The notes under the pieces: generated by a model
What the model was told of the DNA's origin: nothing
Databases searched by the model: none
The model's input: only the letters and a program-made list of their open reading frames with translations
Shown here: positions 3,263-39,273 of the stretch, in pieces
Numbering within the stretch: the stretch's first letter is position 1
Layout: each line of letters begins with the position of its first letter
Origin: Candidatus Njordarchaeota archaeon
GTDB lineage: Archaea; Asgardarchaeota; Njordarchaeia; Njordarchaeales; Panguiarchaeaceae
Direction: 5' to 3'
Assembly (NCBI GenBank): GCA_029856685.1
Contig: JAHKKZ010000003.1
Span: forward strand, 1 to 49,844
DNA: 49,844 nt
Position numbers and translations under genes: made by a program

Positions 3263-3727
3263 ATGAATATAGGTCTTAGCAAAGAGGAAAAGAAGAAAAA
3301 TTCTGATAGGAATACTGAGATGATACCGTTAACGTACCATGAAACAGCGGAACTCTTGGAGAAACTGTACAGGGAAAGAGGAGGTTTTAGGCTTACGGAA
3401 CAACGTCGAGTTTACGAATATGTACAGAAATTTTTATTTGCATCAAAAGAGGAGATACTCTCTCTTGTTAAAAGTCTTGAGGAGGAACTAAAAATTCCAA
3501 GACAAGTAGCTATCCAGATTGCATATCTCCTACCTATCGCACCAGAAGAATTTGAGCCATTCTTCATCCAGCTTAGAAGAATGGGATATAAAGAGCTGAA
3601 TCCTGAGGAATTCGTCTCTAAGGCTACCAAACTCATATTACCCGTGTGGAAGAAAAATCTAAATACAATACTAACACTAAGAAATATAAACATTACAGAG
3701 CTTAGAGCTGAACAAAAAAAGAAATGA
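3263..3727 (+). CDS. rpo4: RNA polymerase subunit Rpo4 (F)
   Basis: PLTYHETAELL...EQRRVYEYVQKF...AIQIAYLLP pattern; adjacent to SRP54 as in other archaea. Confidence 0.75.
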   Translation: MNIGLSKEEKKKNSDRNTEMIPLTYHETAELLEKLYRERGGFRLTEQRRVYEYVQKFLFASKEEILSLVKSLEEELKIPRQVAIQIAYLLPIAPEEFEPFFIQLRRMGYKELNPEEFVSKATKLILPVWKKNLNTILTLRNINITELRAEQKKK

Positions 3728-3750
3728 TATCTGTCCTGTGAGGTGTCCTA

Positions 3751-5097: not shown

Positions 5098-5100
5098 GAT

Positions 5101-6397: not shown

Positions 6398-7780
6398 TTG
6401 GACATTGAGCATATATTTAGAGCATATGATATTAGAGGTATCGTGGGAGAGGATCTTCTTCCCGATGTCATTTTGAAGGCATCAGCAATTTTCGCAAACA
6501 TCATAACCGAAAAGGGAGGAAAAAAAGTAGCTGTTGGAGGAGATATCAGAATATCAACACCGTCTCTTGTTTATGCTGCGATGAGCGGAATAATAGCTGC
6601 AGGAGTTGATGTCTATCTAACATACCCCCTGCCTATACCCGTGTTTTGCAATTTTATTTGGCAAAACAAAAACGTTCATGGAGGAGCATTCATTACAGCT
6701 TCCCATAATCCACCACAATACAATGGAGTCAGGTTCAGAAGGGATGATGGTACAGGCTTTTCACACGAAAACATTGAGATCAGAAAAAGATTCTTCAAAA
6801 ACAGAATCAAATTCGTTGGATGGGCGGATTATGGAACTTCAGAAACTATCCAAAATGATGAAGTCATCGATATGTACCTGGAGTTCATTGCATCAAGAAT
6901 ACCCAAACCCGACAGATCGATACGAGTTATCATTGATGGAAAACATGGAGCAGCAAACTTAGTTTCCTTAAAATTATTTGCCCAGTATGGCCACGAGACT
7001 ATAGCCCTTAACAGCACAATAGATGGAACATTTCCAACGGGAATTCCAGACCCGCTTCATGGGGATGTTAGTCAAATAAAAAATCTAATGATTACCACTA
7101 AGGTACCGATAGGAATAGCATATGATGGCGATGGAGATCGTGCAGCATTTTTCGATGAGAAAGGTAGACTTGTCCCATCCGAAATTATCGGTCTATTTCT
7201 TGCGGAGAATCTACTCAAGGCAAATGATGTTATAGTGTATAATACTATGTGTAGCTCTGTGCTTAGACGAAGAGCTGAGGAGATGGGTTTCAAAACCGTT
7301 GAATGCCGCGTAGGAGATGTCTTTATGGCCGAAGCTACTAAGATCCACAATGCTAAACTTGGTATCGAGGAGTCATATCATTTCTTCCTGCCAATATTTG
7401 GTTTTCACTATGACGATGCGATTATGACTTCCATTATTGTAACAAACTTGCTTGCAAGTATGGAAAAAAGTCTAGCCAAGATACATGATTGCTATGGTCC
7501 GATATTTACAATAAGGCAGAATATTCAGGTTGATGATAAAGTGAAGTTCAAAATAATAGAAAAATTTAAGAAGTGGGCAACAAGCGAATATAGCGACATA
7601 AGTACAATTGATGGTGTAAAAATATATCTAGAGAACGGTAGCTTCTTAGCTCGCCCCTCGAACACCGAACCGTTAATAAGAATAGTTGCTGATGGAGAAC
7701 GCAAGGATACTGCCGAAGAAATCCTAAGGAAATTCACTAAAAAACTTAAGGAGATAATCACGAATTTTTCAAAAGGTTAG
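6398..7780 (+). CDS. Phosphomannomutase/phosphoglucomutase family phosphohexomutase
   Basis: FRAYDIRG, TASHNP, DGDGDR, RPSNTEP. Confidence 0.93.
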   Translation: MDIEHIFRAYDIRGIVGEDLLPDVILKASAIFANIITEKGGKKVAVGGDIRISTPSLVYAAMSGIIAAGVDVYLTYPLPIPVFCNFIWQNKNVHGGAFITASHNPPQYNGVRFRRDDGTGFSHENIEIRKRFFKNRIKFVGWADYGTSETIQNDEVIDMYLEFIASRIPKPDRSIRVIIDGKHGAANLVSLKLFAQYGHETIALNSTIDGTFPTGIPDPLHGDVSQIKNLMITTKVPIGIAYDGDGDRAAFFDEKGRLVPSEIIGLFLAENLLKANDVIVYNTMCSSVLRRRAEEMGFKTVECRVGDVFMAEATKIHNAKLGIEESYHFFLPIFGFHYDDAIMTSIIVTNLLASMEKSLAKIHDCYGPIFTIRQNIQVDDKVKFKIIEKFKKWATSEYSDISTIDGVKIYLENGSFLARPSNTEPLIRIVADGERKDTAEEILRKFTKKLKEIITNFSKG

Positions 7781-7781
7781 A

Positions 7782-8717
7782 TTACATAGACCTAGCTTCT
7801 TTTATTTTGAACCTAAACTGAACCTTAAGTTCACCATTAAATGCTTTTTCGGCGCCCTCAAGTATCCTACCTACGAGTTCACTAGCAACAGCATCAGCGT
7901 TTTCAATGTTTATTTTACCCTCCTTAAGATCTAGATAGAACTCGTAGAGAACCTTCCCAACATACTTAGCAAAGGGTGAGCCTCCCCTTACTTTTAGTAC
8001 GGGTTTTATTACCTTCTCTATGAATTTACGTCCACGCTTAATGGCCTCAATTCCTATATTAATACTTACTTTCTTTATGAAATCATCTGTTATTCCGAGC
8101 TCCTTAAGCTTATTTTCTAGTCTTATAACCTCACCATTCTGTATAAATCTTACTCTGTAGAGACCATTCTTAAGTACTTGAATCCCTATTCTCTCTACAA
8201 GTTTAGATAAGATTCTATCAGATAATATAGATTCCTTTTTCATTTCCTTTATACTTTGGCCTCTTCGAGATACTATCACCAGATTTACTTGCCTCGTATA
8301 CTCACTAAGAATCGCTCCTCGCACAGTTTTTTTGCGAGGAATACCTCGAAGATTGACATATCTATACCCTCCACCCTTTTTCTCAAGTTTATAGCGAGAA
8401 AATCTTATGCCAGGTGGCTCTGTGAGCACTATTTTCTTGAGCTCTGTAGTTTCAAGTGACGGATGGTGCATAAACCCAAATTTATCTGTACCCCCCGTTA
8501 TCTTGAATGTATATCCTGGGAGCCCTATAATCTTGCCATCCAGTATCTGTCCAATACGCTTACCGTATAAGGCATTTCTAAGTTTTTCATCTTGAAGTAG
8601 TATCTCGAATGCTAATCCGGTACCAAAGAATGCTTTCCCGTCGCTTATAACTAATATTATTCCATCCGGCTTAGGCTGTCTCTCAGATCTAGCAGGTTTT
8701 TTCTTTCTATGCGTCAA
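7782..8717 (-). CDS. rps6e: Ribosomal protein eS6 with long C-terminal extension
   Basis: GKRIG...GLPGYTFKITGGTDKFGF...RKKTVRG...QVNLVIV in the first ~150 aa. Confidence 0.88.
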   Translation of the reverse strand: MTHRKKKPARSERQPKPDGIILVISDGKAFFGTGLAFEILLQDEKLRNALYGKRIGQILDGKIIGLPGYTFKITGGTDKFGFMHHPSLETTELKKIVLTEPPGIRFSRYKLEKKGGGYRYVNLRGIPRKKTVRGAILSEYTRQVNLVIVSRRGQSIKEMKKESILSDRILSKLVERIGIQVLKNGLYRVRFIQNGEVIRLENKLKELGITDDFIKKVSINIGIEAIKRGRKFIEKVIKPVLKVRGGSPFAKYVGKVLYEFYLDLKEGKINIENADAVASELVGRILEGAEKAFNGELKVQFRFKIKEARSM

Positions 8718-8727
8718 TATCGATCAC

Positions 8728-9324
8728 CTATAAGAATACCATGAAATTCTCAACGGGATCATCTATAGTCTCATCAACCCCAAGCATATCCCGTTCTCGA
8801 AGATACTGATTTGCTAGTAACCAATATATAAGTGCGAGTGCTTTGCGTCCCCTATTATTGCATGGTATGACCAAATCAACATTATATGGCTCGTTCGAGG
8901 TATCGGCTAATGCGACTACTGGGACTCCTATTTTATTAGCCTCACGTATAATGTTGGCTTCTTTCATCGGATCGGAGACAAATACGATTTCAGGTTCAAC
9001 ATACTGTGGGAGAGAAGGATTTGTTAATATTCCAGCATAATATTTTCCGATGCGAGCTATAATTCCCGTCCACTTAGAAAACATCAATAAAGGCTTCTGA
9101 GCATAAATCCTCATAGCAAAAGCGAATATTTGTTCAGGTTCGTAGTTAGCCAACATCTTCGCAGCTATCCTTATTCGCTCATCTGTCTTCCTGATGTCAA
9201 TCAAGTATACCCCTGCTTTTTTCGAATGTACATATTGTCTCATTGGTTCTGCAAGACTATGAGTTCCTATGTGTACACCAAACTTCATATATACCTTTGA
9301 TGGTACTAGGAGCTCTCCCGACAT
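8728..9324 (-). CDS. rps2: Ribosomal protein uS2
   Basis: GVHIGT, KTDERIRIAA, LTNP, DLVIPCNNRGRKAL. Confidence 0.95.
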   Translation of the reverse strand: MSGELLVPSKVYMKFGVHIGTHSLAEPMRQYVHSKKAGVYLIDIRKTDERIRIAAKMLANYEPEQIFAFAMRIYAQKPLLMFSKWTGIIARIGKYYAGILTNPSLPQYVEPEIVFVSDPMKEANIIREANKIGVPVVALADTSNEPYNVDLVIPCNNRGRKALALIYWLLANQYLRERDMLGVDETIDDPVENFMVFL

Positions 9325-19537: not shown

Positions 19538-20731
19538 CTAAATCCAATCGCCGATCTCGAGTTTAGAAGGCAAGTATTTCTGAGTCAGGAATCTAAATCC
19601 CTTTGATGCTAATGCCTGTATCTCTGCTTTTTCTCTTGTTCGTAACATAAGCTTTATTTCCTCAACATATTTAGGTCGTGCTTGGATAAATGGTTCCTCA
19701 AGCAGCTGTAGAGCTCTTTCTCGGTCTTTAGGAGAAAGCGGTATGCGGACATCTTTAGGTATTTGATACTTATCAAGATCGCTAGGTCTAACTCCTAGCC
19801 ATTTTATGTCTGGCGTTACTAGGAATTGTGATTCATAAGAGAGTCTCTTTGAGCCTACAGCATATACAAGGAGTATGTGGAGACCATAGGGATCCGAGTC
19901 TACCAATCCGAAGACTGGTAGTTTGAGTTCTTTTACTAGAAGTTTCAGGAAAGCTCTTGTTCCTATGTCTGCCTGTCCTTTGCCAGTTATTATTATCGAG
20001 GGAAATCTATCGTAGAATCTATCTTCCGCCAATCGGATAAAAGCTGCTTCTTTCTCAACAACTAATATAAATTCTGCATCGGAGTCTAATATCTCTATTG
20101 TGTCTATAAGTGGTGTTATTGCTTTTCCACCCGTTCCCATTTTGGTGCAGTCTATTATATCCCTTCCCTCTCTAAAAACTAGTCGGCCTATGACCGCCCC
20201 CTTGGCGCTTGCAACCACATGCAATGACCATCTATCGACACCTAACATGGCTGCGACGTCTTCTAATGCCTCATCACTATCCCTTTGTTCTTCAAATAAA
20301 ACAACATCATTATAAAACACTTCTCTCTTTGTTGCATGTATATCTTCTTCTAGGAGTTCATGGACTATATCTAATATGCGCGCTATTATCGTCGCTTTTC
20401 TTATTGATTGAAGAGAACCTAATGAGCTATGCCGGTATATCTGCTTAAGGAAAATAACATCTTGTATTGCATCGTATATGACGTTTTTAGGATCTCTAGA
20501 GGGATACACAAACTCAGGTACTTTGCCCCTGAGAATTTCTCTGAATATATTTTCTATTAATGCATGAATTTCCTTGTGTAGAATTTCCCGAGGTTTTCTT
20601 TCAACTTTGATAGCATCGGACGGCACCACTACTTCATGTTGTTCTATTTTTCTTAAAATCTCTTTCCGCAATTTCTTTACTTTCTTGAGAACTCTTCTTA
20701 CTGAAGCTCCATCGGTCTTTCTTTTTGACAT
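19538..20731 (-). CDS. top6A: DNA topoisomerase VI subunit A (Spo11-like)
   Basis: TKREVFY (catalytic Tyr), VEKEAAF, DSDPYG, KAEIQAL. Confidence 0.95.
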   Translation of the reverse strand: MSKRKTDGASVRRVLKKVKKLRKEILRKIEQHEVVVPSDAIKVERKPREILHKEIHALIENIFREILRGKVPEFVYPSRDPKNVIYDAIQDVIFLKQIYRHSSLGSLQSIRKATIIARILDIVHELLEEDIHATKREVFYNDVVLFEEQRDSDEALEDVAAMLGVDRWSLHVVASAKGAVIGRLVFREGRDIIDCTKMGTGGKAITPLIDTIEILDSDAEFILVVEKEAAFIRLAEDRFYDRFPSIIITGKGQADIGTRAFLKLLVKELKLPVFGLVDSDPYGLHILLVYAVGSKRLSYESQFLVTPDIKWLGVRPSDLDKYQIPKDVRIPLSPKDRERALQLLEEPFIQARPKYVEEIKLMLRTREKAEIQALASKGFRFLTQKYLPSKLEIGDWI

Positions 20732-22224: not shown

Positions 22225-23877
22225 ATGGCTGGTGCAGAAACACGTAAGGCTATCCCTGTCTTAGTATTAAAGGAGGGGACGCGACGTTCATATGGTACTG
22301 AGGCCTTAAGAAATAATATTCTTGCAGCAACAACACTCGCAAGAATGATGAAGACTAGTCTTGGTCCACGAGGATTAGACAAAATGCTTGTAGATCAGTT
22401 TGGAGATGTTGTAATAACTAATGATGGCGCAACTATACTCGATGAGATAGATATTGTCCATCCTGGAGCCAAATTCCTAGCAAAACTTTCCAAGTCACAG
22501 GACATTGAGGTCGGAGATGGAACGACAACCGTTGTAGTCCTTGCCGGCGAACTACTAAGCAAGGCCGAGGAACTTCTGGATAATGATATTCACCCAACAA
22601 AGATCATAGATGGGTACCTAATGGCTTTGAGAAAATCACTCGAAATTCTTGATAGCCTGGCAATAAAGATAGATCCAAATAAGAAAGAGGAAGTATTAAA
22701 AGTCGCTAAGACCTGCATCGCATCTAAGACTATCGCTCCGTACGCAGATCACTTTGCAAGCATCGCATACGAAGCTGTAAAGACAATCAGGTATGAGGAA
22801 AACGGTCGACTTAGGATTCCACTTGATGAAATAAAAATAGAAAAGAAAGAAGGAGGAAGCTTAACAGACACAGAGCTTATTTATGGCATTGTACTCGATA
22901 AAGAAATAGTACACCACAGAATGCCTAGAAAAGTTGAGGATGCAAAAATTCTTTTGATAGCATACCCACTAGAACTTGAAAAAAGCGAATTTGCCGATGT
23001 TCATGTATTCGCAGGAAAAACTTCAATAGATGCGCTTCTACGCTGGGAAAAAGAAAAACTCCAAGAGATGGCAGAAAAAATTATAAAGACGGGAGCAAAT
23101 GTCGTTATTTGCCAAAAAGGTATTGATGATATAGTACAACATTACTTAGCTAAAAACGGAATACTAGCTGTCAGAAGAGTCAAGAAAAGCGATATGGAAA
23201 AAATCGCTAAGGCTACTGGCGCGAAGATTATACAAAACGAAGAATTTTTAAGTTCTGATGCCCTAGGCTACGCAAATATTGTTGAGGAAAGGAAAGTTGG
23301 CGATGAAACAATGATATTTATCCGTGGATGCAAGAATCCGAGAGCAGTCTCGATTCTTATTCGGGGTGGCTCAAAGTTAACTGTAGAAGAGGCAGAAAGA
23401 AATCTAAAAGATCTGCTCCATGCAGTGAAAAATGTTATGCTTGACCCACGAATACTTCCTGCAGGCGGAGCACCTGAAATGGCCATTGCAATAAAGCTAC
23501 GTGAATTTGCTGAAAGAGAGCTAAGTGGTCGACAAAGCATAGTTGTCAAAGCATTTGCAGACGCCATTGAAGCTATTCCAAGCACACTCATAGAGACAGC
23601 CGGCCTTGATCCTATCGAAGATCTCAACAGACTTCGAACCTATCACGCGCAGGCTAAACATACCTATGGTGTCGATGTTATAAATGGCGGACTAGCTGAT
23701 ATGAGAGAACTTGGATACTTTGACCCCTTTGTCGTCAAGAAGAATGCTATTGAGTCCGCTGTCGAAGCTGCTGTAATGTTACTAAGAATCGATGATATAA
23801 TCGCAGCAAAAGAGGCCTTTGAATTAAAGAAGGAAGAAACAGAAGCAGAAGAGAGAGAATCTGAAGAAGAATTCTAG
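22225..23877 (+). CDS. ths: Thermosome subunit (group II chaperonin)
   Basis: [30 protein letters not shown]. Confidence 0.97.
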
Positions 23878-23890
23878 CCTTTTTTATTTC
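23878..23890 (+). terminator. Oligo-T terminator after thermosome gene
   Basis: CCTTTTTTATTTC immediately after the stop codon. Confidence 0.5.
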
Positions 23891-23973
23891 TACCATTTAA
23901 TCTTTTCTGGCGAAGTCTCGAAGGAGATCAGTTACCACCTACCAGCTTAGAAAGTTCTACTATAGGAGCCCAA

Positions 23974-24038
23974 GAAATCAGTGTAACTATGATTCTTCAT
24001 CGCATTTTCGCTCTGGCTTGCCGGGTTCTCATCACCTG
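23974..24038 (-). ncRNA. Box C/D sRNA guiding 23S rRNA H69/H71 region
   Basis: GTGATGA-gaacccggcaagc-CAGA...ATGAAGA-atcatagttaca-CTGA; guides complementary (10 bp each) to conserved CUUGCCGGGU and GUAACUAUGA. Confidence 0.88.
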
Positions 24039-24139
24039 AAGGATTATATTAGTCGTTACAAATATTTTTTAACACATTTTAACACAAATTAATTTATATG
24101 TTTTTAGGATTTGTTGAACTGTTGAGGGTCTTGATAAGA

Positions 24140-24628
24140 ATGTCGGACGATGAGCTAAAGGAGCTTACTCCCGAGGAAATAGAAGCTCTAAGAGCCATGT
24201 TTTTTAAGGAAATCTCTGCGGGTCCTGCTGAGGAGCTTAGATTGATAGTTCATCCAGAACTCGAACAGCTACTATACAATAATGTGGATATTATGGCTGC
24301 ACTCTTAGTAGATTCATCGGGATTTCCAATAGATTTTGTTACAAAATACGAAACGAAGCTTAAACAGGAGGACCTCCTGGTGATTGCAAGTGCAAATATT
24401 TGGGGATTATTTGCTGCATCGGAACGAGAAAGCATGGGTCTTAACTTAGGGCACGTTAAAAGAATAATTACTAGGACTAAAAATGGTTTTCTGTTCATAA
24501 CAAGATGTGGAGAAAATTTTGTCTTAGCAGCAATAATTAGGCCGCGAGCCAGATTAGGAGTAATAATGCGCGAACTCGCAGTAACTGCTAAAAAAATTGC
24601 AGAGAAAACATCAAATTATACGCTATAA
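24140..24628 (+). CDS. Roadblock/LC7 (MglB-like) protein with acidic N-terminal extension
   Basis: IMAALLVDSSGFPI...LNLGHVKRIITRTKNG...FVLAAII....LGVIM. Confidence 0.85.
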   Translation: MSDDELKELTPEEIEALRAMFFKEISAGPAEELRLIVHPELEQLLYNNVDIMAALLVDSSGFPIDFVTKYETKLKQEDLLVIASANIWGLFAASERESMGLNLGHVKRIITRTKNGFLFITRCGENFVLAAIIRPRARLGVIMRELAVTAKKIAEKTSNYTL

Positions 24629-24671
24629 TAAAATAGAATTTTGGAATTCTGCGACCCCTCGTTTTTCTTAG

Positions 24672-25673
24672 CTATATTTTCTCAGCTATAAAGCCTATGT
24701 ATCTCCCAACGCTCCGTAGAATTGGAGCTGACGAGAATTTATAATCGACACCTGCCAGAAACTTATGAAGTATTGAAAATCTCTTCGATTTAAAATCCAT
24801 TGGAAGTGTAGAGAAAATTCCCTTCAGGTATATAAGCCTTAGGCTATTTTTTCGTAACAAGTTATCTAGTTCAAAAATTGTATAAAAGTGTGTTGGTATC
24901 CTTACATAGCCCTGTCTTATAGGCACTCTAATTTTTGCAAATGGTCTATTAGCATAGCGTAGGGTCTTCACGAACAGAGAAAAACTACTAAGAACTTTGA
25001 ATATCCAATCTAGAGCAAATTTGTTAAGAACGGTACCTATGAAAATCCCGTTGGGACGCAAAACACGAGATATTTCCTTAAATGCTCTTGGAAAAATTAT
25101 AGAGTGATCAAGAGCACCAAACACTGCTAAAACAACATCAAAGATCGCATCTTTGAACGGCAAAAACTCCGCGGGGGCGCAGATAAAGTCTATGTTTCTT
25201 GCAGATAGAGCTTTAGATACTATCTTAGCTTCAAATAGGGCTTTAAGAGAGATGTCAATCCCAACGGCCCTAAATCTAATGTTTGTACTTATCCGCTGGA
25301 GGTACTCTCTTATTAGCCATAGTTCCCAACCGCTTCCACAACCTACGGACAGTATGTTAAGCTTTTTGATATTTCTGCTACCAATCAGATATCCCAGTCC
25401 ATGGATAATAAGCTCGGCTTGTTGTCGCCTTAAATGCCTAAACCAATCACTTCTTGATGCTCTCCAAGTATTTGGGGGGATCCGCCTATAAGCAGAGATT
25501 ACTTTTCTAAGATGCCTATGAAGGATTGTTGGATAGATTATTGGAACTCCGTGATATATCCTATAGATGCGATTTGAAGATTTTATGTATCCACCTAAAA
25601 TCTCGCCATCAGACTTCGCTGCATATAGCTCATCAACTCGTATGAGAAGAAAATCAAGGATCCATTCATACAT
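24672..25673 (-). CDS. Class I SAM methyltransferase with N-terminal Trm112-like segment
   Basis: LSVGCGSG, GIDIS, AEFLPFKD..FD, RVLRPNG; N-terminus ILDFL...EILGGYI.....Y.I..GVP. Confidence 0.8.
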   Translation of the reverse strand: MYEWILDFLLIRVDELYAAKSDGEILGGYIKSSNRIYRIYHGVPIIYPTILHRHLRKVISAYRRIPPNTWRASRSDWFRHLRRQQAELIIHGLGYLIGSRNIKKLNILSVGCGSGWELWLIREYLQRISTNIRFRAVGIDISLKALFEAKIVSKALSARNIDFICAPAEFLPFKDAIFDVVLAVFGALDHSIIFPRAFKEISRVLRPNGIFIGTVLNKFALDWIFKVLSSFSLFVKTLRYANRPFAKIRVPIRQGYVRIPTHFYTIFELDNLLRKNSLRLIYLKGIFSTLPMDFKSKRFSILHKFLAGVDYKFSSAPILRSVGRYIGFIAEKI

Positions 25674-25697
25674 TACAGCACCACACTTTTGCTGTTT

Positions 25698-26543
25698 TTA
25701 TTCTGACATCACAATTTCTGTTTCAAGAACATCATAAAATCTCATTATGTAGATCTCCTCATCTTTAGAATAGGCCTTAATAATTACTTCCTTATCCTTC
25801 AGCCGATCTTTGGGTGGCTCTTTAAAGTATATGGCCTGAAACACTCCCGAACTGTCAGCTAGAAGATATCGCCATATGCGTTCTGTTACTGGTTGGTCTA
25901 TTTGACCATGTTCTGGGCAATACCAAGAATCTTCGACCATCTCAACACCCTTGCCACACAGCGGACATGCGGAATATTCGCTGGTGATCTCTTCTAAAAC
26001 GATAGCTTTCACTAACCATGCGCCTCTGTGCTCCATTACAAACTTTAGTGACTCAGCCCAAGCAGGTTTGAGCTCTGTTATCGGAGGGAGCGTAGTATCG
26101 TCTAGAATCTCAATGACAGAATTCTCTGTGACTTTTATTCCAGAATACTTTTCGAGCCTCATCTTAGTATAGCCACGTATCATTATGACATTATCCTCAT
26201 TACTGCGAAGAATTTCAACGTTATGTTCTCCGAATGCCACGCCCAGAACACGCCTTCGCTCATCAACTATGCTAAAAAGAACGAATGGCGTTCTTTCTTG
26301 AGTACCCTTCGTGTATCTCACTGGACCTACTTCCACAATCCTACCTATAATAGGTGGGTAAAATAAATCGTATGACTCTACACCAAAACGCCTAGCAACA
26401 ATAATTGCTGCCGCTCTAGGGCTCAGTTTCCCTTCCGTCTTATTCATTAGATCCCTAACTAGGTTATCAAACTCTTCTCTTGATATATCCGAACGCATTT
26501 TAACAAGCTTATACACATCGTTATATTCCTCCGAGCTCACCAT
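25698..26543 (-). CDS. Replication protein A large-subunit-like (OB folds plus Zn finger)
   Basis: N-terminal helical domain (AAAIIVARRFGV), OB fold, ACPLCGK...CPEHG...LADSSG. Confidence 0.8.
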   Translation of the reverse strand: MVSSEEYNDVYKLVKMRSDISREEFDNLVRDLMNKTEGKLSPRAAAIIVARRFGVESYDLFYPPIIGRIVEVGPVRYTKGTQERTPFVLFSIVDERRRVLGVAFGEHNVEILRSNEDNVIMIRGYTKMRLEKYSGIKVTENSVIEILDDTTLPPITELKPAWAESLKFVMEHRGAWLVKAIVLEEITSEYSACPLCGKGVEMVEDSWYCPEHGQIDQPVTERIWRYLLADSSGVFQAIYFKEPPKDRLKDKEVIIKAYSKDEEIYIMRFYDVLETEIVMSE

Positions 26544-26636
26544 GAATATTACCCATATTAATCAGCGAACCACATCATCTGATAAGTCAAACTTTAAAAA
26601 GACATAAATATTAAAAGACAAACTTCGAAGAAAAAA

Positions 26637-26711
26637 GCCCCGGTGGTGTAGAAGGCCAAGCATCCCGGCCTTTCAAGCCGGGGATCGCGGGTTCAAGTCC
26701 CGCCCGGGGCA
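26637..26711 (+). tRNA. tRNA-Glu(TTC)
   Basis: GCCCCGG/CCGGGGC acceptor, CCGGC-CTTTCAA-GCCGG, T-loop TTCAAGT. Confidence 0.96.
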
Positions 26712-26807
26712 CTAACACTATATTCTTTCTGGAAGATAAATTCCTCAAACAATAAAATATCCTTGTCATTAAGGACGAATAACATCATATTGTTTCTTCA
26801 AACGTAT

Positions 26808-26843
26808 TGATATACTCTAACTCATGTATATCATTTTATAAAA
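26808..26843 (+). promoter_or_regulatory. Actin promoter: palindrome TGATATAC-N10-GTATATCA abutting TATA box TTTTATAAAA
   Basis: Perfect 8-bp inverted repeat 26808-26833 directly 5' of TATA 26834-26843. Confidence 0.55.
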
Positions 26844-26896
26844 GAGATAATGAAGTAATATTCGGTGAAATATCAATTTAATAATAATGCTAGGAG

Positions 26897-28069
26897 GTGT
26901 CAAGTTTGGCAGGAGCAGCTCCAACTCACAAAATTCCTGAACTAGAAAGACCAGCAGTAGTAGCAGACCTTGGAACAGGATTCACAAAAGCTGGATTTGC
27001 TGGAGATGATGCACCAAGAACTGTATTTCCGACAGTTGTGGGGTACCCGAAGTACTCAGTCGTAATGCCAGAAGCCGAAACACTAGAATACTATGTAGGC
27101 CGCGACGCAATACACATGAGAGGGGTACTACAACTAGTATGGCCTCTGGAGCACGCTATCGTTGCTGATTGGGATGCTTGGGAGAAACTTATGTTTCATC
27201 TATTCTATAAGGAGCTTAGGGTGAATCCACAAGATCAAGCTATTCTCATTACTGAAGCCCCCTTAAGCCCTAAAGATAATAGGATTCGTATGGCTGAGAT
27301 ACTCTTCGAGACTTTCGGTGTTCCTGGGATATACGTTGCTACGCAGGCTATTCTCTCTCTATATGCAGCGGGTAGAGTTACAGGGTTGGTAATAGATTCT
27401 GGTGATGGTGTTACCCACATAGTTCCCGTGCAAGAGTCATACTTATTAGCCCATGCTGTTAAGAGGCTTAATCTTGCTGGACGCGATGTTACGCGATATT
27501 TAGCTAAGTTGCTTACGAAGAGAGGCATCTACTTTACTTCCTCCGCCGAAATGGAGATTGCTAGAGATATCAAAGAGAAGCTATGTTATATTGCTATCGA
27601 TTATAAGGCCGAATTAGAGAAAGCCAAGAAGATTCCTAAGGCTGTTGCAGGAATGTACGAACTCCCAGATGGACGCGTGATTGAGCTTGTGGAAGAGAGA
27701 TTCATGGCCCCAGAGATCATGTATAACCCTATGCTTATAGGGCTTGAAGCTAGACCTTTGGATGAACTAGTTCTCGAGAGCATTTTCGCTACGGACTTGG
27801 ACGTCAGACCTGCGATGTATTCAAATATTGTGATTTCTGGTGGTAACACTATGCTACCTAACTTCGCTGAGAGGTTAGAAAAAGAGCTCAAGGAAATCGT
27901 CCCTGAAAGAGCTAAAGATAAGATCGCTATTGATGCACCTGAAGAGCGTATATACGGTGTTTTCATTGGTGGATCTATACTGGCTTCATTACCTGCATTC
28001 AAGAAAATTGTTGTTACAAGAAAAGAGTGGTCTGAAGTTGGTCCAGACTCTGTTCTCAGGACTCTATAG
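26897..28069 (+). CDS. Actin (eukaryote-like, Asgard/Lokiactin type)
   Basis: DLGTGFTKAGFAGDDAPRTVFP, PLEH, LITEAPL, QAILSLY, DSGDGVTH, LAGRD, RDIKEKLCY, YELPDG, IGGSILASL. Likely start is TTG 26906 behind SD GGAGGTG. Confidence 0.97.
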   Translation: MSSLAGAAPTHKIPELERPAVVADLGTGFTKAGFAGDDAPRTVFPTVVGYPKYSVVMPEAETLEYYVGRDAIHMRGVLQLVWPLEHAIVADWDAWEKLMFHLFYKELRVNPQDQAILITEAPLSPKDNRIRMAEILFETFGVPGIYVATQAILSLYAAGRVTGLVIDSGDGVTHIVPVQESYLLAHAVKRLNLAGRDVTRYLAKLLTKRGIYFTSSAEMEIARDIKEKLCYIAIDYKAELEKAKKIPKAVAGMYELPDGRVIELVEERFMAPEIMYNPMLIGLEARPLDELVLESIFATDLDVRPAMYSNIVISGGNTMLPNFAERLEKELKEIVPERAKDKIAIDAPEERIYGVFIGGSILASLPAFKKIVVTRKEWSEVGPDSVLRTL

Positions 28070-28199
28070 TTTTTTCGTTTTTATTCCTACAAATACATAC
28101 TTAAAATTATCTTTATTTTTCAACAAATGTTGTTTTTTGATAGTAATGGCTTTAGTGGTTTTTTGTACTTTATTAGTGTACTTGTAGGGTGCGGTAGTC

Positions 28200-28823
28200 A
28201 TGGTTTTTAAAGATAAGTATGGTCACTATCGATTTAAAATTGTACTGTATGGACCCTCACTAAGTGGGAAAACAACAATGCTAAAAATACTGTACAATAA
28301 GATAAGGGGCCTCAAAAAGGGGCGGTTACGCATGGTTGCTGACCAATCTGGACGAACAATATTCTTCGACTACTTACCACTTAAAACTTCTGGCAACATA
28401 TTCTTCGATTTATATACTGTCCCAGGACAGAGAAGACATAAAACTCAGAGACGCCTAATACTTAAGGGTGCTGATTCTGTAGTATTTGTTGCGGATTCCG
28501 ATCCAGAAGCTCTCGAAGAGAATATTTATAGCATTCAAGAGCTTAGAACTTTTCTGGGCAACGAATGGGGAGAGATACCAATAGTTGTCGCTCTAAATAA
28601 ACGTGACCTGCCTGATGCACTCCCAGAAGTCATGATGTTACGTGTTATGCGTCTCGATGGTCCATATCCCGTATTTAAAACTGTAGCCATAGAAGGGTTA
28701 GGTGTAAAACGTGTATTCCAGGAAGCTTGTCGTCTAGCAGTTTTGGCCAGAATATTCCCTGAAGCTTTTAGAAGAGAGATCAAAATCTTGGCTAGAGAAA
28801 CCCGACGAAAACTTGGTCTCTGA
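28200..28823 (+). CDS. mglA: MglA-type small GTPase
   Basis: KIVLYGPSLSGKTT, RTIFFD, YTVPGQ, GADSVVFVADS, NKRDL. Confidence 0.9.
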   Translation: MVFKDKYGHYRFKIVLYGPSLSGKTTMLKILYNKIRGLKKGRLRMVADQSGRTIFFDYLPLKTSGNIFFDLYTVPGQRRHKTQRRLILKGADSVVFVADSDPEALEENIYSIQELRTFLGNEWGEIPIVVALNKRDLPDALPEVMMLRVMRLDGPYPVFKTVAIEGLGVKRVFQEACRLAVLARIFPEAFRREIKILARETRRKLGL

Positions 28824-28844
28824 CACTTCTATTTTAACTTATTC

Positions 28845-30563
28845 CTATTCGATAGCAGATCTAAGTTCTTTGGCTATATCTCTTGTGTAAGTAAGGATAA
28901 TAACATTTTTTCCTAATCTTCTAATCCTAACAAGCTCATTCGAGAAAGACATGTTTGTTGATGCTTTTTTATCGAGTAGTTTGTTAATAATTTCTGGGTT
29001 AACGTTATAGCTTAATAGCAAACTCCGCACCTTTGAGCAATCTCCTAGAGCCTCAAGATTGAACATGACACGAAAATCATCAAGTAGCTTATACGCTCTC
29101 TCTTCGAGATCCTGAACAATATAGCGAGGAACCCTCTTTAGTTTCTCTATAAACGCATTTATCTTATCAAGAGTAAGATTCACGTTGCTCTCTATTTCCT
29201 CCAGCTCATGTTTTAGTATCTCTCTTATCCTCTCAATCTTATCTAATACCTTCCTCTCGACATACCTATATAGCTCTGCTACTACTAGGTCGCCTCTCCC
29301 CAACTCGCCATGAGCCAATCTTTCTAGTTCCTTCAAGTAGCTTGGAGTATCATTTTTTCCATAAATTCCTATAGCGATCCTTTCTAATTCCTTCGGACCA
29401 ACACCAAGAATTATAGATGCTAATGCCAGAGCTTTAAGCCAAACACCCGGCGTATCAAAAGACCCTATTTTCGTTTCCTTAAGCCACTTAACAAATTTTT
29501 TAAAAAACTCCCAAGGATTATGATATCGGCTTTTCACTAATGGTTTTAGCTCAGTTCTATGTGCAAAAACATATGGTATCGCCCAGAGAAGGTCTTCTAT
29601 ATCAACTGCTTTTCTCCCCCTCAGCCATGCCCTTGCTCGAGCATAAGCAAAAAGCGCTATTGAAGCTCTCTCGTCAGGAGGTTCTTGAATCTTACTGCAA
29701 GGCTCATTAGCATATTCACATTCCGTACATGGAAGCCTCATATATCCTGGCATAAGGTCTAATCTACCAAACTTACATATACGGAGGGATGAAAGTATCA
29801 TTATCCCCAAGAGTTTTATATGTTCGGGTATAGCTATAGACATTACATCATTCCATACACATTCCAGTTCTTCGAAAGACATAATTTTGGGCATGGTTTC
29901 GACAATAGCAAGTTTACCAGATGTTTCTTTCTCACTTTCTAAGAGTCTATCAATTATATTCTTCGATTCCTCTAAGCCTGGAAGTCCTATATAGCAAGAC
30001 CCCCAGAACCTAGATTTTAAGGCCCGATCGATTTCTCCTCGGAATGGATTCATGTCAGCGAAGCATATGTAATCGGGAGTCTCAAAACGCATACCCCCAT
30101 ATTCAATATATCCTTCCTCCAACAGACTTAGAAGAGCATCTTGAACACTCTTAGAAAAGCGATTTATCTCATTGATAAACTTTACTCTTGCTTTTACTAT
30201 GGGACGTACTATGATTTCCTCCTTACCAGTAGTCAGCAATTTAACAAGATTCGTACTAACCAAAACTTTTTGGAGAGTCTTCTCAGGAGCCCCTATCACA
30301 ATTCCTAAAATGTCCTTCTGCCCCATTGAAAGCGCTCGGCTTATGAGTCTTACAAGAGTTGACTTTCCCGCCCCCGGATATCCAACTAATAGGACTTTGT
30401 TATTACGTATTAAGAGAGACGCGATAATAAATTCTTTGAGTGAACGATCCTGCGTAAACCATCTCTCGAAGAGTTCCTTATACAAAATTGCTATTTTGTC
30501 ACGATATTTCTCAATCTCCTCAGAATTTTCCTCCAATGCTACTCCCCAAGGGCATCCATGCAT
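28845..30563 (-). CDS. MoxR-like AAA+ ATPase
   Basis: GYPGAGKS, FINEINR, QDALLSLLEEG, MNP, DRALKSRF, AHR. Confidence 0.88.
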   Translation of the reverse strand: MHGCPWGVALEENSEEIEKYRDKIAILYKELFERWFTQDRSLKEFIIASLLIRNNKVLLVGYPGAGKSTLVRLISRALSMGQKDILGIVIGAPEKTLQKVLVSTNLVKLLTTGKEEIIVRPIVKARVKFINEINRFSKSVQDALLSLLEEGYIEYGGMRFETPDYICFADMNPFRGEIDRALKSRFWGSCYIGLPGLEESKNIIDRLLESEKETSGKLAIVETMPKIMSFEELECVWNDVMSIAIPEHIKLLGIMILSSLRICKFGRLDLMPGYMRLPCTECEYANEPCSKIQEPPDERASIALFAYARARAWLRGRKAVDIEDLLWAIPYVFAHRTELKPLVKSRYHNPWEFFKKFVKWLKETKIGSFDTPGVWLKALALASIILGVGPKELERIAIGIYGKNDTPSYLKELERLAHGELGRGDLVVAELYRYVERKVLDKIERIREILKHELEEIESNVNLTLDKINAFIEKLKRVPRYIVQDLEERAYKLLDDFRVMFNLEALGDCSKVRSLLLSYNVNPEIINKLLDKKASTNMSFSNELVRIRRLGKNVIILTYTRDIAKELRSAIE

Positions 30564-32167
30564 AGTCTAGACATTTTGTTAACAACAATGTTTACTTCCT
30601 CCTCCTCAGTAGCATCAGGTGATACATATATTATTGGGACGTTAAGAAGATTTAGTGTGGTTTCGGCTTTTTTCCACAGCTCGTGTGTAATTGCAAAGAT
30701 TACTAAAAAAACTCTTTCTCTTAGACCCATCAGATTATTTATTACTTCTGGGAACGCAATATCATATATTGCAGTATCCGTTATTATCGCTACTAACGCT
30801 TTCTCAAATAACACATTGAGGTGCTTTTCAATAAGCTCAAATACGTGTCGAATATTTGTTCCCCCTTCAGAGTCCAATCTCAGCAATAGTTCTTCAATAA
30901 TATCATAATCGAACGTTGGGGGGGATCCCTCCCATGCACCTGAAGAAAAAGTTGAGATTCCGACAGACATATGAAATTTCTTCGCAATTTCAACAAGAGC
31001 AACACCAAGATCTATGGCACGCTCAATAGCATTTCCGTCCATGGATCCACTAGTGTCTATGCAAAGTTCTATATGACGTAGAGTTCCCCTTCCAAAGATC
31101 CTTTCACCACCCCTCTCATAGACGTCGCGTAGAGTTGATATCTCGGGTATCACATAACCAAATGTATCAGCCGATATTTCAATATTTAGCTTTTCTTCGT
31201 CGTCTCCAAGAAACCACTCACTAAATCCATATTTCGTCGCCCTAGGCTCTATGCTTATTATTTTCTCCTCGATTATCGAAAGTAACTTCTTTATACGAGC
31301 CCTCCTAGCAGCAGCTAAGTACCGTCTCTTATCAAGCAATTTCTGAATTAAAACTTTATTCTCAGAGAAAGCTGGTTGCTTACCTTTTCCGCCGAGTTTA
31401 GCATCCAATTTTTTAGCAATTGTTTTTGCAAAGTTATAGTCTATCTCACCTAATAATTCCAACTCACGGGGATTCAAACATATCTTACCGCTACGATCTA
31501 TGATTTCATCGGCTGATATCGGAAGAATATATCTCCTTAAGTTTCTTTCATGGAACGACCATGGACTCAGAGAGCCCATCTCAGATAGAAGTTCCTTAAA
31601 GAAGATTTTGGCCTTGGCGTAGAGTGGGATTCTCAGGGAGACTATCCTGATAAGACGCTTAGTTCTTTCCGAAATTTGTCTCCCGAGCAGACCCTCATAG
31701 AACTCCATTAGAATCCTTCCTAGTGGGCTGTAGAAAGCTTTTTTCTGCTTAACGATCTTACTTATAGAATCCCTTACTATAGGTCTTATGCTCTTATGAT
31801 TTGAGAATTGAGTAAATATTGAGAACAAACACATTAAGGAGACAAAAAACCCATGTATTTTCTTATCGACATTTCCTAGGATTTTTCTAGAAGCTGCTAG
31901 CATTATGAGTCTATTAAGCTCAGTTGCTGGAAGAATAGCATGATACCCAAGACCAAGCAATAGGAGATAGCGATCGAAGTCGTATAAAGTGTCTCCTTCT
32001 GGATATTCAGATAGTATTATTGTGCCCCATGAATTATACCATGCTGACTTTGGCGAATCTATGCGTATGGTAAAGCCAGGAAAAAGATCGTATTCTCTAG
32101 AAACCGTTAGGACAAGATTCCTTAGTTCGAAACATCTTATTTCGTCAAGGCTATATTCTTCCTTCAT
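30539..32167 (-). CDS. VWA (MIDAS) domain protein, MoxR partner
   Basis: IDTSGSM, GGTN, IITD in the C-terminal domain. Confidence 0.85.
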   Translation of the reverse strand: MKEEYSLDEIRCFELRNLVLTVSREYDLFPGFTIRIDSPKSAWYNSWGTIILSEYPEGDTLYDFDRYLLLLGLGYHAILPATELNRLIMLAASRKILGNVDKKIHGFFVSLMCLFSIFTQFSNHKSIRPIVRDSISKIVKQKKAFYSPLGRILMEFYEGLLGRQISERTKRLIRIVSLRIPLYAKAKIFFKELLSEMGSLSPWSFHERNLRRYILPISADEIIDRSGKICLNPRELELLGEIDYNFAKTIAKKLDAKLGGKGKQPAFSENKVLIQKLLDKRRYLAAARRARIKKLLSIIEEKIISIEPRATKYGFSEWFLGDDEEKLNIEISADTFGYVIPEISTLRDVYERGGERIFGRGTLRHIELCIDTSGSMDGNAIERAIDLGVALVEIAKKFHMSVGISTFSSGAWEGSPPTFDYDIIEELLLRLDSEGGTNIRHVFELIEKHLNVLFEKALVAIITDTAIYDIAFPEVINNLMGLRERVFLVIFAITHELWKKAETTLNLLNVPIIYVSPDATEEEEVNIVVNKMSRLCMDALGE

Positions 32168-32188: not shown

Positions 32189-33346
32189 TTATTCCGCAGA
32201 TTCACTTGGTATGGGGATGTTACCAACACCAACAGTATTTCCTATTCCTAGGATAACTACCTTACCGCCCTCTGGCACCTCCTCGACTATTATTTTTTTA
32301 ACAATATCGCATGCTTTGTTTACAGCTTGAAGTAACGTCTCGTTAAGAGGTGTTAAGGCTTCAACATAGTTCTCCTTTATAACAATAGCGAATAAAGGAA
32401 TTTTATATTTAGATGACCAAGACTCAATTCTATATTTCTCCGGGCCCGGATCGCCAATCGCGGCTCCGTAACCCACGTCTACCCGACCGGACCTTTCCGA
32501 TTCTAGGCGAAGAGCAGCATCAACAGTTATTATCGCATTCACACCACCTCCTATCTTCTCAAGAAGTTTTTCTAGAAAGCGACCTGGATATCCTACTTCG
32601 CTACCGGGCCCCCTAGCCTTGACCGCCAATACGTAGCGACCATAAATCTCAGAAGAGCTAAAAACAACTTGTAGCTCCTCATCCGTATCGACCTCAGTAC
32701 CAAAGAAGTTGAGCGCTACGAGGGCACCTACACTATCCCCTATGGGAACGCCCTCTATAAATCCTTTGAGAGCATCAAAATAGCTTAGGCAGAGCTCTCG
32801 GAGAAACGGAACAAGCAACTTCAATTGAAGTAGATAATAGATATTTTTCGTCCGGTACCCTATCTCATATATATGGGATGTTATTTTCCAGAGATATCTT
32901 ATCGCCGCAGCGGCTTCTAAAGCGCTTTCCAGATCTCTTTGGACATATTCTGGAGCGTCAGGTATTATGTGTCGTGCTACATTCCTCAACCTGCTACGCC
33001 TAACATCGAGTATGTGCTCTAGCCGTTGCAAAACACCAGTTGGATCTAATGTCACGGGTGCAATAACAAAACTATTTATAATCTCATCAATCCACCTTAG
33101 GATCCGTGCGAAGTCATCTGATTTCTTCAGATTTTTTGCGATCACATCCACGTTCGTTGCAACTTCTGGTAGTATGTCCTGTCGATGCATCAAGATTAGA
33201 CGCATAAACATTCTCTTCGAAAGCTTCTCATACAGCGTGATCTCATTAATAAATGACCTTAGGCTCCAAACAATGAATTGTACCTGTATTTCGTTGATTA
33301 GAAATATGAATAATAGGAATATTATGAGCGATATCAAATAGTCCAT
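32189..33346 (-). CDS. DUF1512 family protein
   Basis: DPTGV..RLEH, PIGDSVG, KARGPG..VG.PG, TVDAALRLE, GIGNTVGVG; start estimated. Confidence 0.85.
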   Translation of the reverse strand: MDYLISLIIFLLFIFLINEIQVQFIVWSLRSFINEITLYEKLSKRMFMRLILMHRQDILPEVATNVDVIAKNLKKSDDFARILRWIDEIINSFVIAPVTLDPTGVLQRLEHILDVRRSRLRNVARHIIPDAPEYVQRDLESALEAAAAIRYLWKITSHIYEIGYRTKNIYYLLQLKLLVPFLRELCLSYFDALKGFIEGVPIGDSVGALVALNFFGTEVDTDEELQVVFSSSEIYGRYVLAVKARGPGSEVGYPGRFLEKLLEKIGGGVNAIITVDAALRLESERSGRVDVGYGAAIGDPGPEKYRIESWSSKYKIPLFAIVIKENYVEALTPLNETLLQAVNKACDIVKKIIVEEVPEGGKVVILGIGNTVGVGNIPIPSESAE

Positions 33347-33457
33347 GCTCAATTGCACGAACACCCGCACAACACCAAAAATCCTCTTTCTCAAATTAAG
33401 GACACAAATAACTTAATTTTATTTATTCGAGTATCAAAAAGGTATTTGGGGGTATCA

Positions 33458-38000: not shown

Positions 38001-38268
38001 GTCGATCCCCATTACTAATGTTAATCTCAGTTAAATTCAGCAACAATTATATGTTTATTTGACTTTATAAAAATACCACAATACTAAACTTAGGAAAGAA
38101 GAAAATTCCTTCTAAATCTTACATTAACAAGCGGTGGTATTTTCTTTGAAAATTCCCGCCTCTGGCTCCTAGTATTTCCACATCAAATCTATGAGGATAT
38201 TACCCTTATAATATCAGGTGTTAATTATTTCTTTGGGCTTCCCATTTCACGCTGAAATGGAGAGAATT

Positions 38269-39273
38269 ATGTCGGTAGATGAGATAAAGCTTTTTCGATG
38301 TGAGAGTATCGAGGGGGTCATTGATTATGTCAAATCTTCAGAAATAGATGAAAAAGCAAGACATCAGATACTTCTATTCGTGGACGAACTCAGGATGAAG
38401 GGATTTAGCCCATTCCGTATAATGGCATATGCTTTCACACTAGTTGAATTAGCAGATATAGTGAAGAAAGATTTTGCTGAGCTCACAGCAGTAGATTTCA
38501 GATACTATGTAAGCTATCTACTCAACAAAAAGCATAATAAGCATAGCACAATTCGGGAGAAGATGATGAGAATCAGAGTATTTATGAGGTGGCTTCTTGA
38601 TTTGCCGCCTAGAACTACTCCAGAGCCCATGCGCTGGTTCTTTACGATAAACCCAAAATCGACAAAGGGAGAAAGAAAACTCGAAATACTTGAAAAAATA
38701 ATTAGCTATAAAGAATATGTAAAGCTTCTACAAGCAGCCAGCAATCCAAGAGACAAAGCATTGCTTCAGTTTATGTATGAGAGTGGAGCGAGGATCCTTG
38801 AGATACTTAAGGTTCGCATAAAGGATCTGCACCTAGATGAGAACTATGCTGTGGTAGGTGGAGGAAAAAGACTAGTTCCTCTCGCAAACAAGGAATTTAT
38901 CGAGGAGTGGCTCAGAATACATCCACTAAAAAGCGAACCAGAGGCATACCTATTCTGCAACTTAAGAGCCCCAAAAAAGCCTCTCAGTTATCCCGCGGTT
39001 AGAAAGCTTCTAAGAAGAATATCAAGAAAAGCTGGGCTTAGCCGAAGAATAACAGCCCATATGTTTCGGCACTCACGAGCGACGCTTCTAGCTAAGCTAG
39101 GGGTTAGCCCATACACGATGAACCAGGTGATGGGATGGAGCACATCTACGAGAATGTGGCAGGTATATCTACATATTACACAAAAAGATGCAATACAGGA
39201 GGTACTTAAGAAATATGATGAACAAGTAGCAAAACTGAGTTATAACTCTAAACCGGCTCGTATGTCTCCATGA
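38269..39273 (+). CDS. Tyrosine recombinase/integrase (Xer family)
   Basis: ESGARILE (R), HMFRH (HxxR), MGWS (W variant), VYLH (Tyr); start estimated. Confidence 0.9.
   Translation: MSVDEIKLFRCESIEGVIDYVKSSEIDEKARHQILLFVDELRMKGFSPFRIMAYAFTLVELADIVKKDFAELTAVDFRYYVSYLLNKKHNKHSTIREKMMRIRVFMRWLLDLPPRTTPEPMRWFFTINPKSTKGERKLEILEKIISYKEYVKLLQAASNPRDKALLQFMYESGARILEILKVRIKDLHLDENYAVVGGGKRLVPLANKEFIEEWLRIHPLKSEPEAYLFCNLRAPKKPLSYPAVRKLLRRISRKAGLSRRITAHMFRHSRATLLAKLGVSPYTMNQVMGWSTSTRMWQVYLHITQKDAIQEVLKKYDEQVAKLSYNSKPARMSP

Follow-up and report, generated by a model that had tools for sequence, protein, structure and literature searches.

Group-1 MglA proteins, such as those of Thermus thermophilus and Myxococcus xanthus, are small GTPases that are marked by an intrinsic arginine beside the G2 threonine, the G3 motif TVPGQ, the P-loop GxxxxGK(T/S), and the G4 motif NKxD (Wuichet and Sogaard-Andersen 2014, PMC4316618). 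In Myxococcus, MglA is reported to connect directly to MreB at focal adhesions (Treuner-Lange et al. 2015, PMC4508894), and the MglA paralog SofG is described as binding the bactofilin BacP (review, PMC4085708). MglA-like GTPases of the MglA1 type have already been reported in Asgard archaea (Vargova et al., bioRxiv 10.1101/2024.02.28.582541; Tran et al. 2024, PMC10933270), and Asgard actin is likewise already in print. Here, we describe a locus at which an actin gene and an mglA gene stand side by side, with a Roadblock gene a short distance upstream. The locus lies on a 49,844-nucleotide (nt) contig of a Candidatus Njordarchaeota archaeon (GenBank assembly GCA_029856685.1, contig JAHKKZ010000003.1; G000 and C176 in our data set), the whole of which is called the window below. 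The genome is a metagenome-assembled genome (MAG) of 1.93 Mb in 252 contigs and is 78.7% complete and 1.9% contaminated. The actin-MglA pairing is confined to the genus of this genome, a conserved module of the two genes across the Asgard archaea does not exist, and the two separate genes were probably brought together by a genus-specific rearrangement.

The origin of small-GTPase control over actin is an open question of eukaryogenesis, and a conserved Asgard module of actin and a GTPase would make it testable. A preliminary description of the window had read the pair in this way, as a GTPase switch positioning actin filaments. This reading finds no comparative support, since the adjacency occurs in a single genus, the genes are convergent in two of its five genomes, and a Roadblock gene is the usual partner of Asgard mglA. 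The comparative data thus steer effort away from a tempting, weakly founded hypothesis, and the pairing is local to a single thermophilic genus. The titles, abstracts, and passages considered from the literature on MglA, Asgard and other archaea, Roadblock proteins, and Njordarchaeales actin mention no actin-MglA gene pair. An orphan Asgard MglA, an Asgard actin, and a Roadblock protein are all known kinds of protein, found here in a genus-specific neighborhood.

The actin and MglA genes and the distribution of the pair

The actin gene (26897..28069, forward strand) encodes a protein of 390 amino acids (aa) that matches the Pfam family Actin at 369.6 bits (cutoff, 27) over profile positions 3 to 407 of 410, and solved actins match it at 418 to 433 bits over residues ~17 to 388. 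The protein is far under the NCBIfam cutoffs for crenactin (36.9 versus 630) and MamK (40 versus 400), and likewise under that for BeeR. It is the sole actin match in the window genome at an E value of ≤1e-5 and is 51 to 57% identical to other Asgard actins. As in Asgard (lokiactin-type) and eukaryotic actins, the match to the Pfam profile is full length, and nothing unusual was noted in the comparison. Judged by these matches, the 390-aa protein is a eukaryote-like Asgard (lokiactin-type) actin that is present as a single copy in the lineage and whose polymerization is only predicted. The true start of the gene is probably TTG 26906 rather than the called GTG 26897, because GGAGGTG at 26893-26899 lies 7 nt before this TTG and the alignments of orthologs start at residue 4.

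The mglA gene (28200..28823, forward strand) encodes a small GTPase of 207 aa. Its best solved relatives in a phmmer search of the PDB are T. thermophilus MglA (149 bits; E value, 1.1e-42) and M. xanthus MglA (121 bits), and the next family, Arl8, reaches only 35 bits. In addition, a Foldseek search with its AlphaFold2 (AF2) model, which has a mean predicted local distance difference test (pLDDT) score of 90.5, gave MglA structures for all 13 matches listed in ranks 1 to 14, the best two being 3t1q and 3t12, with template-modeling (TM) scores of 0.88 to 0.89 and 48% identity. The P-loop G18PSLSGKT25 (G1) and the G4 motif N133KRD136 are present, and K24, T25, N133, K134, and D136 are invariant in a 39-row MglA alignment. 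The intrinsic arginine stands beside the G2 threonine in GRTIFFD (R52-T53), where it aligns with ERT of T. thermophilus MglA and is nearly invariant among the aligned proteins, and G3 reads T73VPGQ77 instead of DxxGQ. The 207-aa protein carries every sequence mark of group-1 MglA, and it shares the Ras-like G domain, R52-T53, TVPGQ, and NKRD with the proteins of T. thermophilus and M. xanthus. Such a GTPase would bind GTP through G1 and G4 and would use R52, an arginine finger of its own, together with Q77 for hydrolysis. The window protein differs from group-1 MglA in being archaeal and in being an orphan without an adjacent mglB. Compared with Thermus MglA, it is also shorter by 4 residues after G2 and by 3 in the helix that follows G3. 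The nearest Roadblock gene lies 3.6 kb upstream of mglA, with four protein-coding genes and one tRNA gene between them. The missing adjacent mglB does not rule out membership in the family, because orphan MglA proteins are a recognized class (PMC4316618). The actin, the MglA-type GTPase, its intrinsic arginine and TVPGQ motif, and its RETRRKLGL tail had all been named in the preliminary description, and these identifications hold.

The C terminus of MglA, which ends in RETRRKLGL, forms an extra helix (residues 187 to 205) that is confident in the AF2 model. This helix of 20 residues is not found in bacterial MglA. In the 39-row alignment, all of the order Njordarchaeales, including the sister family without actin adjacency, has a homologous extension, PExYxxELxxLAxETRxKL, which is missing from other Asgard and bacterial MglA proteins. 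The net charge of the tail ranges from +2 to +4 in the window genus versus −2 to +1 in the sister family, and its mean Eisenberg hydrophobicity is approximately −0.6. The tail was considered as a membrane-inserting amphipathic helix, and this candidate was rejected, the tail being far too polar and its charge positive in this genus only. The helix is unlikely to insert into a membrane because its hydrophobicity is very low; a protein-binding or electrostatic role is possible.

The actin and mglA genes lie on the same strand with a gap of 130 nt (28070-28199), in agreement with the spacing given earlier. Contigs from public runs span the junction, covering 26637-28900 (X3 record 2), 27530-28900 (X4 record 16), and 27726-28900 (X6 record 21), and a 48.8-kb metagenome contig (L031) has the same gene order with 99% protein identity. 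The junction is no misassembly, because these independent contigs from other runs bridge it.

To place the pair among the Asgard archaea, 41 genomes from 26 genera were searched with MglA and actin, and the coordinates of the matches were compared. The set comprised the window's own genome, 4 others from its genus, 9 further genomes from the order, and another 27 from the phylum. An MglA-family match (E value, ≤1e-15) was found in 40 of the 41 genomes and an actin match (E value, ≤1e-40) in 35, and both genes are present in 35 genomes. The two genes are neighbors in all five genomes of the window genus (g1), whereas no adjacency exists among the 30 further genomes of the phylum with both genes, and the closest pair on one contig outside the genus is 21 kb apart (G024). 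The sister family, which includes Candidatus Njordarchaeum guaymaensis, carries orthologs of both genes (64 to 70% identity for MglA and 72 to 73% for actin) on separate contigs. No MglA-family open reading frame (ORF) was found at 22 actin loci outside the genus, examined within ±8 kb where the contig allows, and one of these loci (L017) has a Ras-family GTPase 0.9 kb from actin. A Roadblock domain was likewise found in none of the 149 neighboring ORFs scanned at these loci, which come from 22 genomes; the scan left out nine ORFs of 70 to 82 aa.

The same distribution was obtained from a wider sample of species representatives, in which MglA was sought by tblastn (E value, ≤1e-4) in flanks of up to 7 kb around the best 80 of 450 actin loci. 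These loci span the Njordarchaeum family and the Wukong-, Jord-, Hod-, Frey-, Odin-, Heimdall-, Thor-, Hermod-, Borr-, and Promethearchaeota. MglA was found near actin in only 4 members of the genus and at none of the 76 other loci, some of which are shortened by contig ends and which overlap the 22 loci examined within ±8 kb. A metagenome scan with MglA returned 16 loci, nine of them at 84 to 99% identity. Actin is next door in all eight of these close loci that could be evaluated, the ninth being a contig of 1.8 kb that is too short to judge, and no actin was seen at the seven more distant loci. The close contigs are probably from the same species as the genomes and do not represent independent lineages. 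The preliminary description had proposed that the conservation of the adjacency be examined across the Asgard archaea and that its reading would fall if the adjacency were unique to this genome and the two proteins did not interact, directly or indirectly. Conservation ends at the border of the genus; the adjacency is not unique to the genome, as all five genomes of the genus share it, and it comes close to that case in being unique to the genus.

Roadblock proteins as the usual partners of Asgard MglA

The Roadblock/LC7 gene of the window (24098..24628, forward strand) encodes 176 aa and ends 2,268 nt upstream of 26897, which bears out the 2.3 kb reported previously. The protein matches the Pfam family Robl_LC7 at 31.6 bits (cutoff, 23) and is the sole Roadblock match above the cutoff in the window genome, with the completeness given above. 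The start is probably ATG 24140 (162 aa), because the alignments of orthologs open at residues 14 to 15. The AF2 model (pLDDT, 86.5) has the fold alpha-beta-beta-alpha-beta-beta-beta-alpha, and the protein also has an N-terminal helical extension of ~45 residues, of which only residues 11 to 24 are modeled as a free-standing extra helix. In a Foldseek search, the model matches Roadblock3 of MK-D1 with a TM score of 0.89 and T. thermophilus MglB with TM scores of 0.79 to 0.82. The Roadblock fold is thus common to the window protein, MglB, and the Roadblock/LC7 family. However, the window protein differs from MglB in that the solved proteins most closely related to it are generic Roadblock proteins of Asgard archaea (9jue and 7f8m), in its extra N-terminal extension, and in its distance of five genes from mglA. 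It matches the MglA-flanking Roadblock ORFs of other Asgard genomes (phmmer E values, 1e-5 to 1e-10; 22 to 28% identity), and a profile built from the window protein and its Asgard relatives reaches M. xanthus MglB at an E value of 8e-10, behind generic Asgard Roadblock proteins. The protein is a candidate MglB-type regulator and the obvious candidate for the GTPase-activating protein (GAP) of the window MglA, on the grounds of the family-wide gene linkage described below and the solved MglA-MglB complexes.

The surroundings of mglA were compared by taking ±4 kb around the best MglA match in 18 genomes from outside the Njordarchaeales and at 2 more Njordarchaeales loci, and the neighbors within ~1.3 kb were clustered, with 136 ORFs hand-picked of the 245 within 3 kb. 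At 15 of the 18 loci from outside the order, mglA is flanked within ~1.3 kb by one to four small ORFs that belong to a single cluster of 37 members, and all six representatives of this cluster that were scanned exceed the Pfam Robl_LC7 cutoff. The frequent order (L127 to L142; for example, L133 at 3197-5821) is Roadblock (94 aa), Roadblock (154 aa), MglA, and Roadblock (123 aa), followed at 11 of the 18 loci by an ORF of 254 to 285 aa, one of which was tested and is a cis-prenyltransferase (PF01255; 282 bits). The exceptions without a flanking Roadblock gene are two Odin-type genomes and G037. No flanking Roadblock gene was found at the Njordarchaeales MglA loci (L005, L006, L008, L040, L041, L145, and L146). 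Roadblock, not actin, is the likely ancestral and the usual genomic partner of Asgard MglA. The recurrent cluster of Roadblock, Roadblock, MglA, Roadblock, and in part cis-prenyltransferase genes, which is found across many Asgard families and is lost in the Njordarchaeales, may better reveal the function of Asgard MglA than the actin pairing does, and it may already be in print.

The 39-row alignment and a quick maximum-likelihood tree, with SH-aLRT values as the only support, place the window MglA among the members of the Asgard MglA1 group. In this tree, all MglA proteins of the Njordarchaeales group together in a single clade (SH-aLRT, 97) among the Asgard MglA proteins that are linked to Roadblock, and the actin-adjacent copies form a genus clade (SH-aLRT, 89). 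Most of the other Asgard MglA1 proteins sampled are Roadblock flanked and have the G3 motif TVAGQ. In the Njordarchaeales clade, G3 still reads TVPGQ, the flanking Roadblock genes are gone, and the protein carries the C-terminal helix. In the window genus, mglA lies 1.5 to 3.6 kb from a Roadblock gene, and in the sister family, the Roadblock homologs are on other contigs than mglA. The simplest history is that mglA first stood in a Roadblock cluster, became an orphan in the Njordarchaeales, and came to lie beside actin in one genus. On this history, mglA would have left the Roadblock cluster in the Njordarchaeales and gained its C-terminal helix there. MglA most likely needs a Roadblock dimer as its GAP, and the one clear Roadblock gene of the genome would encode its likeliest regulator in the window genus. 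Actin would be just one candidate effector of MglA.

Arrangement, expression signals, and meaning of the pair

The five genomes of the genus show four arrangements of the locus. The genes are codirectional in three genomes (G000, G001, and G004), with an intergenic gap of 107 to 139 nt, and convergent in two (G002 and G003). In G001 and G004, MoxR, actin, and MglA follow in that order on one strand, and in the window genome (G000), actin and MglA are turned around together when compared with G001, between flanks that are collinear in blastn comparisons. In G003, actin and MglA face each other, and in G002, the order is DUF1512, MglA, and then convergent actin, with MoxR and VWA absent from the locus. 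A short gap on the same strand, as would be expected of an operon, is thus not kept across the genus, and co-transcription is excluded in the two convergent genomes because genes that face each other cannot be read into one transcript. Between positions 21000 and 34000 of the window, repeats on either side of the pair, inverted or direct, which might account for the inversions, were sought, and only short matches at the level of chance were found.

Oligo-T tracts act as archaeal terminators. A T-rich tract after the actin stop had been taken earlier as a hint of separate transcripts; the tract is real, and separate transcripts are probable. It reads T6-CG-T5 at 28070-28082 and, extended by A-TT to 28085 (28070..28085, forward strand), directly follows the stop codon (TAG, 28067-28069) as a putative terminator. 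T5 to T7 runs occur within 45 nt past the actin stop in all five genomes of the genus. Upstream of actin, a TATA-box-like sequence, TTTTATAAAA (26835..26844, forward strand), is a putative promoter that is conserved in the genus, where TTTATAA(A/G) is found ~55 to 70 nt upstream of the actin start at all seven loci. The mglA gene is preceded by a Shine-Dalgarno-like GGGTG (28187..28191, forward strand) 8 nt before its ATG. The GGTG core recurs 6 to 10 nt before the MglA start at all 11 genus loci, codirectional and convergent alike, and A/T-rich TATA-like boxes lie 30 to 55 nt ahead of this start at the same 11 loci in any arrangement. In addition, no 8-mer common to the upstream regions of actin and MglA recurs in more than one of seven genus loci. 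These putative promoters and terminators argue for separate transcription of the two genes, in which actin would be expressed from its own TATA-box promoter and its transcript would end at the oligo-T tract.

Several observations weigh against reading the pair as the product of a rearrangement without functional meaning. The genes are adjacent in all five species despite at least three local rearrangements of their flanks or orientation, and their continued proximity could reflect selection. The Roadblock, actin, and mglA genes lie within 4.7 kb of each other only in the window genus and are dispersed in the sister family. The chance of such an adjacency is ~0.3% per lineage by a rough estimate that assumes 3 small-GTPase matches, 1 actin, and ~2,000 genes. 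A second MglA of G004 (contig C17, L005) is encoded by the gene that immediately follows one with a bactofilin domain (PF04519; 48 bits), the two genes lying at 7767-8390 and 8636-9271 on the reverse strand. This copy is 80% identical to the window MglA and is a recent in-genus duplicate, nested in the genus clade of the quick tree with a support of 99. To these observations are added the precedents of MglA with MreB (PMC4508894) and SofG with BacP (PMC4085708) and the net positive charge of the MglA tail, a feature of only the genus in which the two genes are neighbors.

Apart from the chance estimate, the same observations are those on which a functional module restricted to the genus would be built. 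In such a module, MglA would have been recruited as a GTP-dependent spatial regulator of actin, acting directly, as MglA acts on MreB, or through an adaptor, with the Roadblock protein as its GAP and the basic helix binding the membrane or the filament. The persistence of the pair through four arrangements and on the eight close metagenome contigs, which are not independent, is in favor of this module, but synteny within a genus is expected from descent alone, and the adjacency is absent elsewhere in the phylum, including the sister family, which has both orthologs. The convergent orientation in two of the five genomes, the separate promoter- and terminator-like signals with no recurring common 8-mer, and a tail too polar for an inserting amphipathic helix also speak against it. 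One chance adjacency is unsurprising, because dozens of lineages were examined, many of them with far more GTPases, and the pair was picked post hoc. The Myxococcus precedents are also imperfect parallels. MglA and MreB likewise combine an MglA-family GTPase with an actin-fold filament protein; however, their link is experimental and their genes are not neighbors, whereas here there is gene proximity in one genus and the actin is eukaryote-like, not MreB. The pair of SofG and BacP is echoed by the MglA duplicate beside the bactofilin gene, which is known here from the genes alone; a bactofilin was found in only one of the five genomes of the genus. A complex prediction for actin and MglA gave a score of 0.00 in both runs, made with two alignments and without controls, and is evidence neither for nor against an interaction. 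All in all, we consider a genus-restricted module of this kind unlikely. Both proteins are small and soluble looking, so a biochemical test of their interaction would be cheap.

A related proposal, that MglA escaped a Roadblock operon and was recruited beside the sole actin gene as a nucleotide-dependent regulator or localizer, with the nearby Roadblock protein as its GAP and the sister copy acting on bactofilin, draws together the orphan state of mglA, the 4.7-kb cluster, and the duplicate of G004, and it meets the same objections from the distribution and the orientation of the genes; we regard it as quite improbable. If true, it would be a prokaryotic link from a small GTPase to actin that arose, separately from Rho and Arf, in archaea related to eukaryotes. 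For a real link between MglA and actin of any form, our expectation is also low, because its support consists of analogies and single observations. Read-through co-transcription in the codirectional species, including that of the window, which would tie MglA dosage to actin without physical interaction, is very unlikely: the common strand, the short gap, and the Shine-Dalgarno site that an internal cistron would need fit with it, but the T runs after the actin stop and the TATA-like boxes before MglA do not, and in G002 and G003, MglA would be expressed without an upstream actin. The genus-specific rearrangement of two separate genes probably remains the better account of the locus.

Neighboring genes and paralogs

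The gene order around the pair is thermosome (forward), Roadblock (forward), methyltransferase (reverse), RPA-like (reverse), tRNA-Glu (forward), actin (forward), MglA (forward), MoxR (reverse), VWA (reverse), and DUF1512 (reverse). The first of these is a thermosome (group II chaperonin) subunit (22225..23877, forward strand; Pfam Cpn60_TCP1, 573 bits), and the Roadblock gene is followed by an S-adenosylmethionine (SAM)-dependent methyltransferase (24672..25673, reverse strand; Pfam Methyltransf_11, 57.5 bits). The next gene (25698..26543, reverse strand) encodes a replication factor A (RPA)-like single-stranded DNA (ssDNA)-binding protein with a zinc ribbon; it matches PDB entry 8aaj at an E value of 2.2e-8 and no Pfam family above the cutoff, and it is outside any cytoskeletal module. 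Between the RPA-like gene and actin, ARAGORN predicts a tRNA-Glu(TTC) (26637..26712, forward strand). Many public-run contigs of other organisms stop or diverge exactly at the borders of this tRNA gene, and its word depth is far above that of its flanks. The tRNA sequence is common to members of the community and is probably a point at which assemblies break. Downstream of mglA lie a MoxR-type AAA ATPase (28845-30563, reverse strand; Pfam AAA_5, 51.6 bits), a VWA protein (30539-32167, reverse strand; Pfam VWA_2, 36.1 bits), and a DUF1512 protein (32189-33394, reverse strand; Pfam DUF1512_C, 186 bits). Across the genus, several genes are flipped individually without a change in gene order, namely, those for the thermosome, Roadblock, methyltransferase, RPA-like, and MglA proteins (window positions 22225-28823 compared with L001 to L004). 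The remainder of the 50-kb window is made up of housekeeping genes, including those for ribosomal proteins, SRP54, topoisomerase VI-A, Cdc6, and tRNA enzymes, together with an integrase gene, and no profilin, gelsolin, or further cytoskeletal gene was seen in the window at an E value of ≤1e-10. The integrase gene encodes a tyrosine recombinase (38218-39273; Phage_integrase, 98 bits) and is followed by several ORFs without a Pfam match at an E value of ≤1e-10, which could represent a small integrated element.

Further MglA-like genes occur in the order. The window genome has a second one (L010; contig C102, positions 52-285 and 309-677) that is ~50 to 54% identical. It stands at the beginning of a contig of 3.1 kb and is broken over two frames, which a frameshift in a pseudogene or a mistake in the assembly may explain. 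In G002, a 742-aa protein (L147; contig C48, 4383-6611, reverse strand) joins a P-loop NTPase motif at its N terminus to an MglA-like domain at its C terminus; this domain keeps GRT and TVPGQ and has a degenerate G4 motif and an insertion, and the genes flanking it encode large proteins without a recognized function. This protein was considered as a Rosetta-stone link to actin and was rejected, as its remainder is a P-loop NTPase region with nothing related to actin. A divergent Njordarchaeales MglA paralog (L040, L041, and L146; 47 to 50% identity), which has a longer C-terminal tail, always stands beside a topoisomerase VI-B gene. The topoisomerase VI-A gene of the window is found at 19538-20731, 6 kb upstream of actin. 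Another GTPase-like protein of the window genome (L148; contig C231, 4478-5614, forward strand; 378 aa) combines a small-GTPase domain at its N terminus with a C-terminal domain of ~190 aa and is encoded beside a TIP49 (RuvB-like) gene; it is possibly a Rag/Gtr-like fusion of a GTPase and a Roadblock domain.

Chaperones of the thermosome and prefoldin types both fold actin in eukaryotes. A distance of 3 kb separates actin from the upstream thermosome gene throughout the genus, and in G016, a prefoldin gene (L026, 9403-9747) is located 290 nt downstream of actin. This proximity of chaperone genes to actin may be a coincidence.

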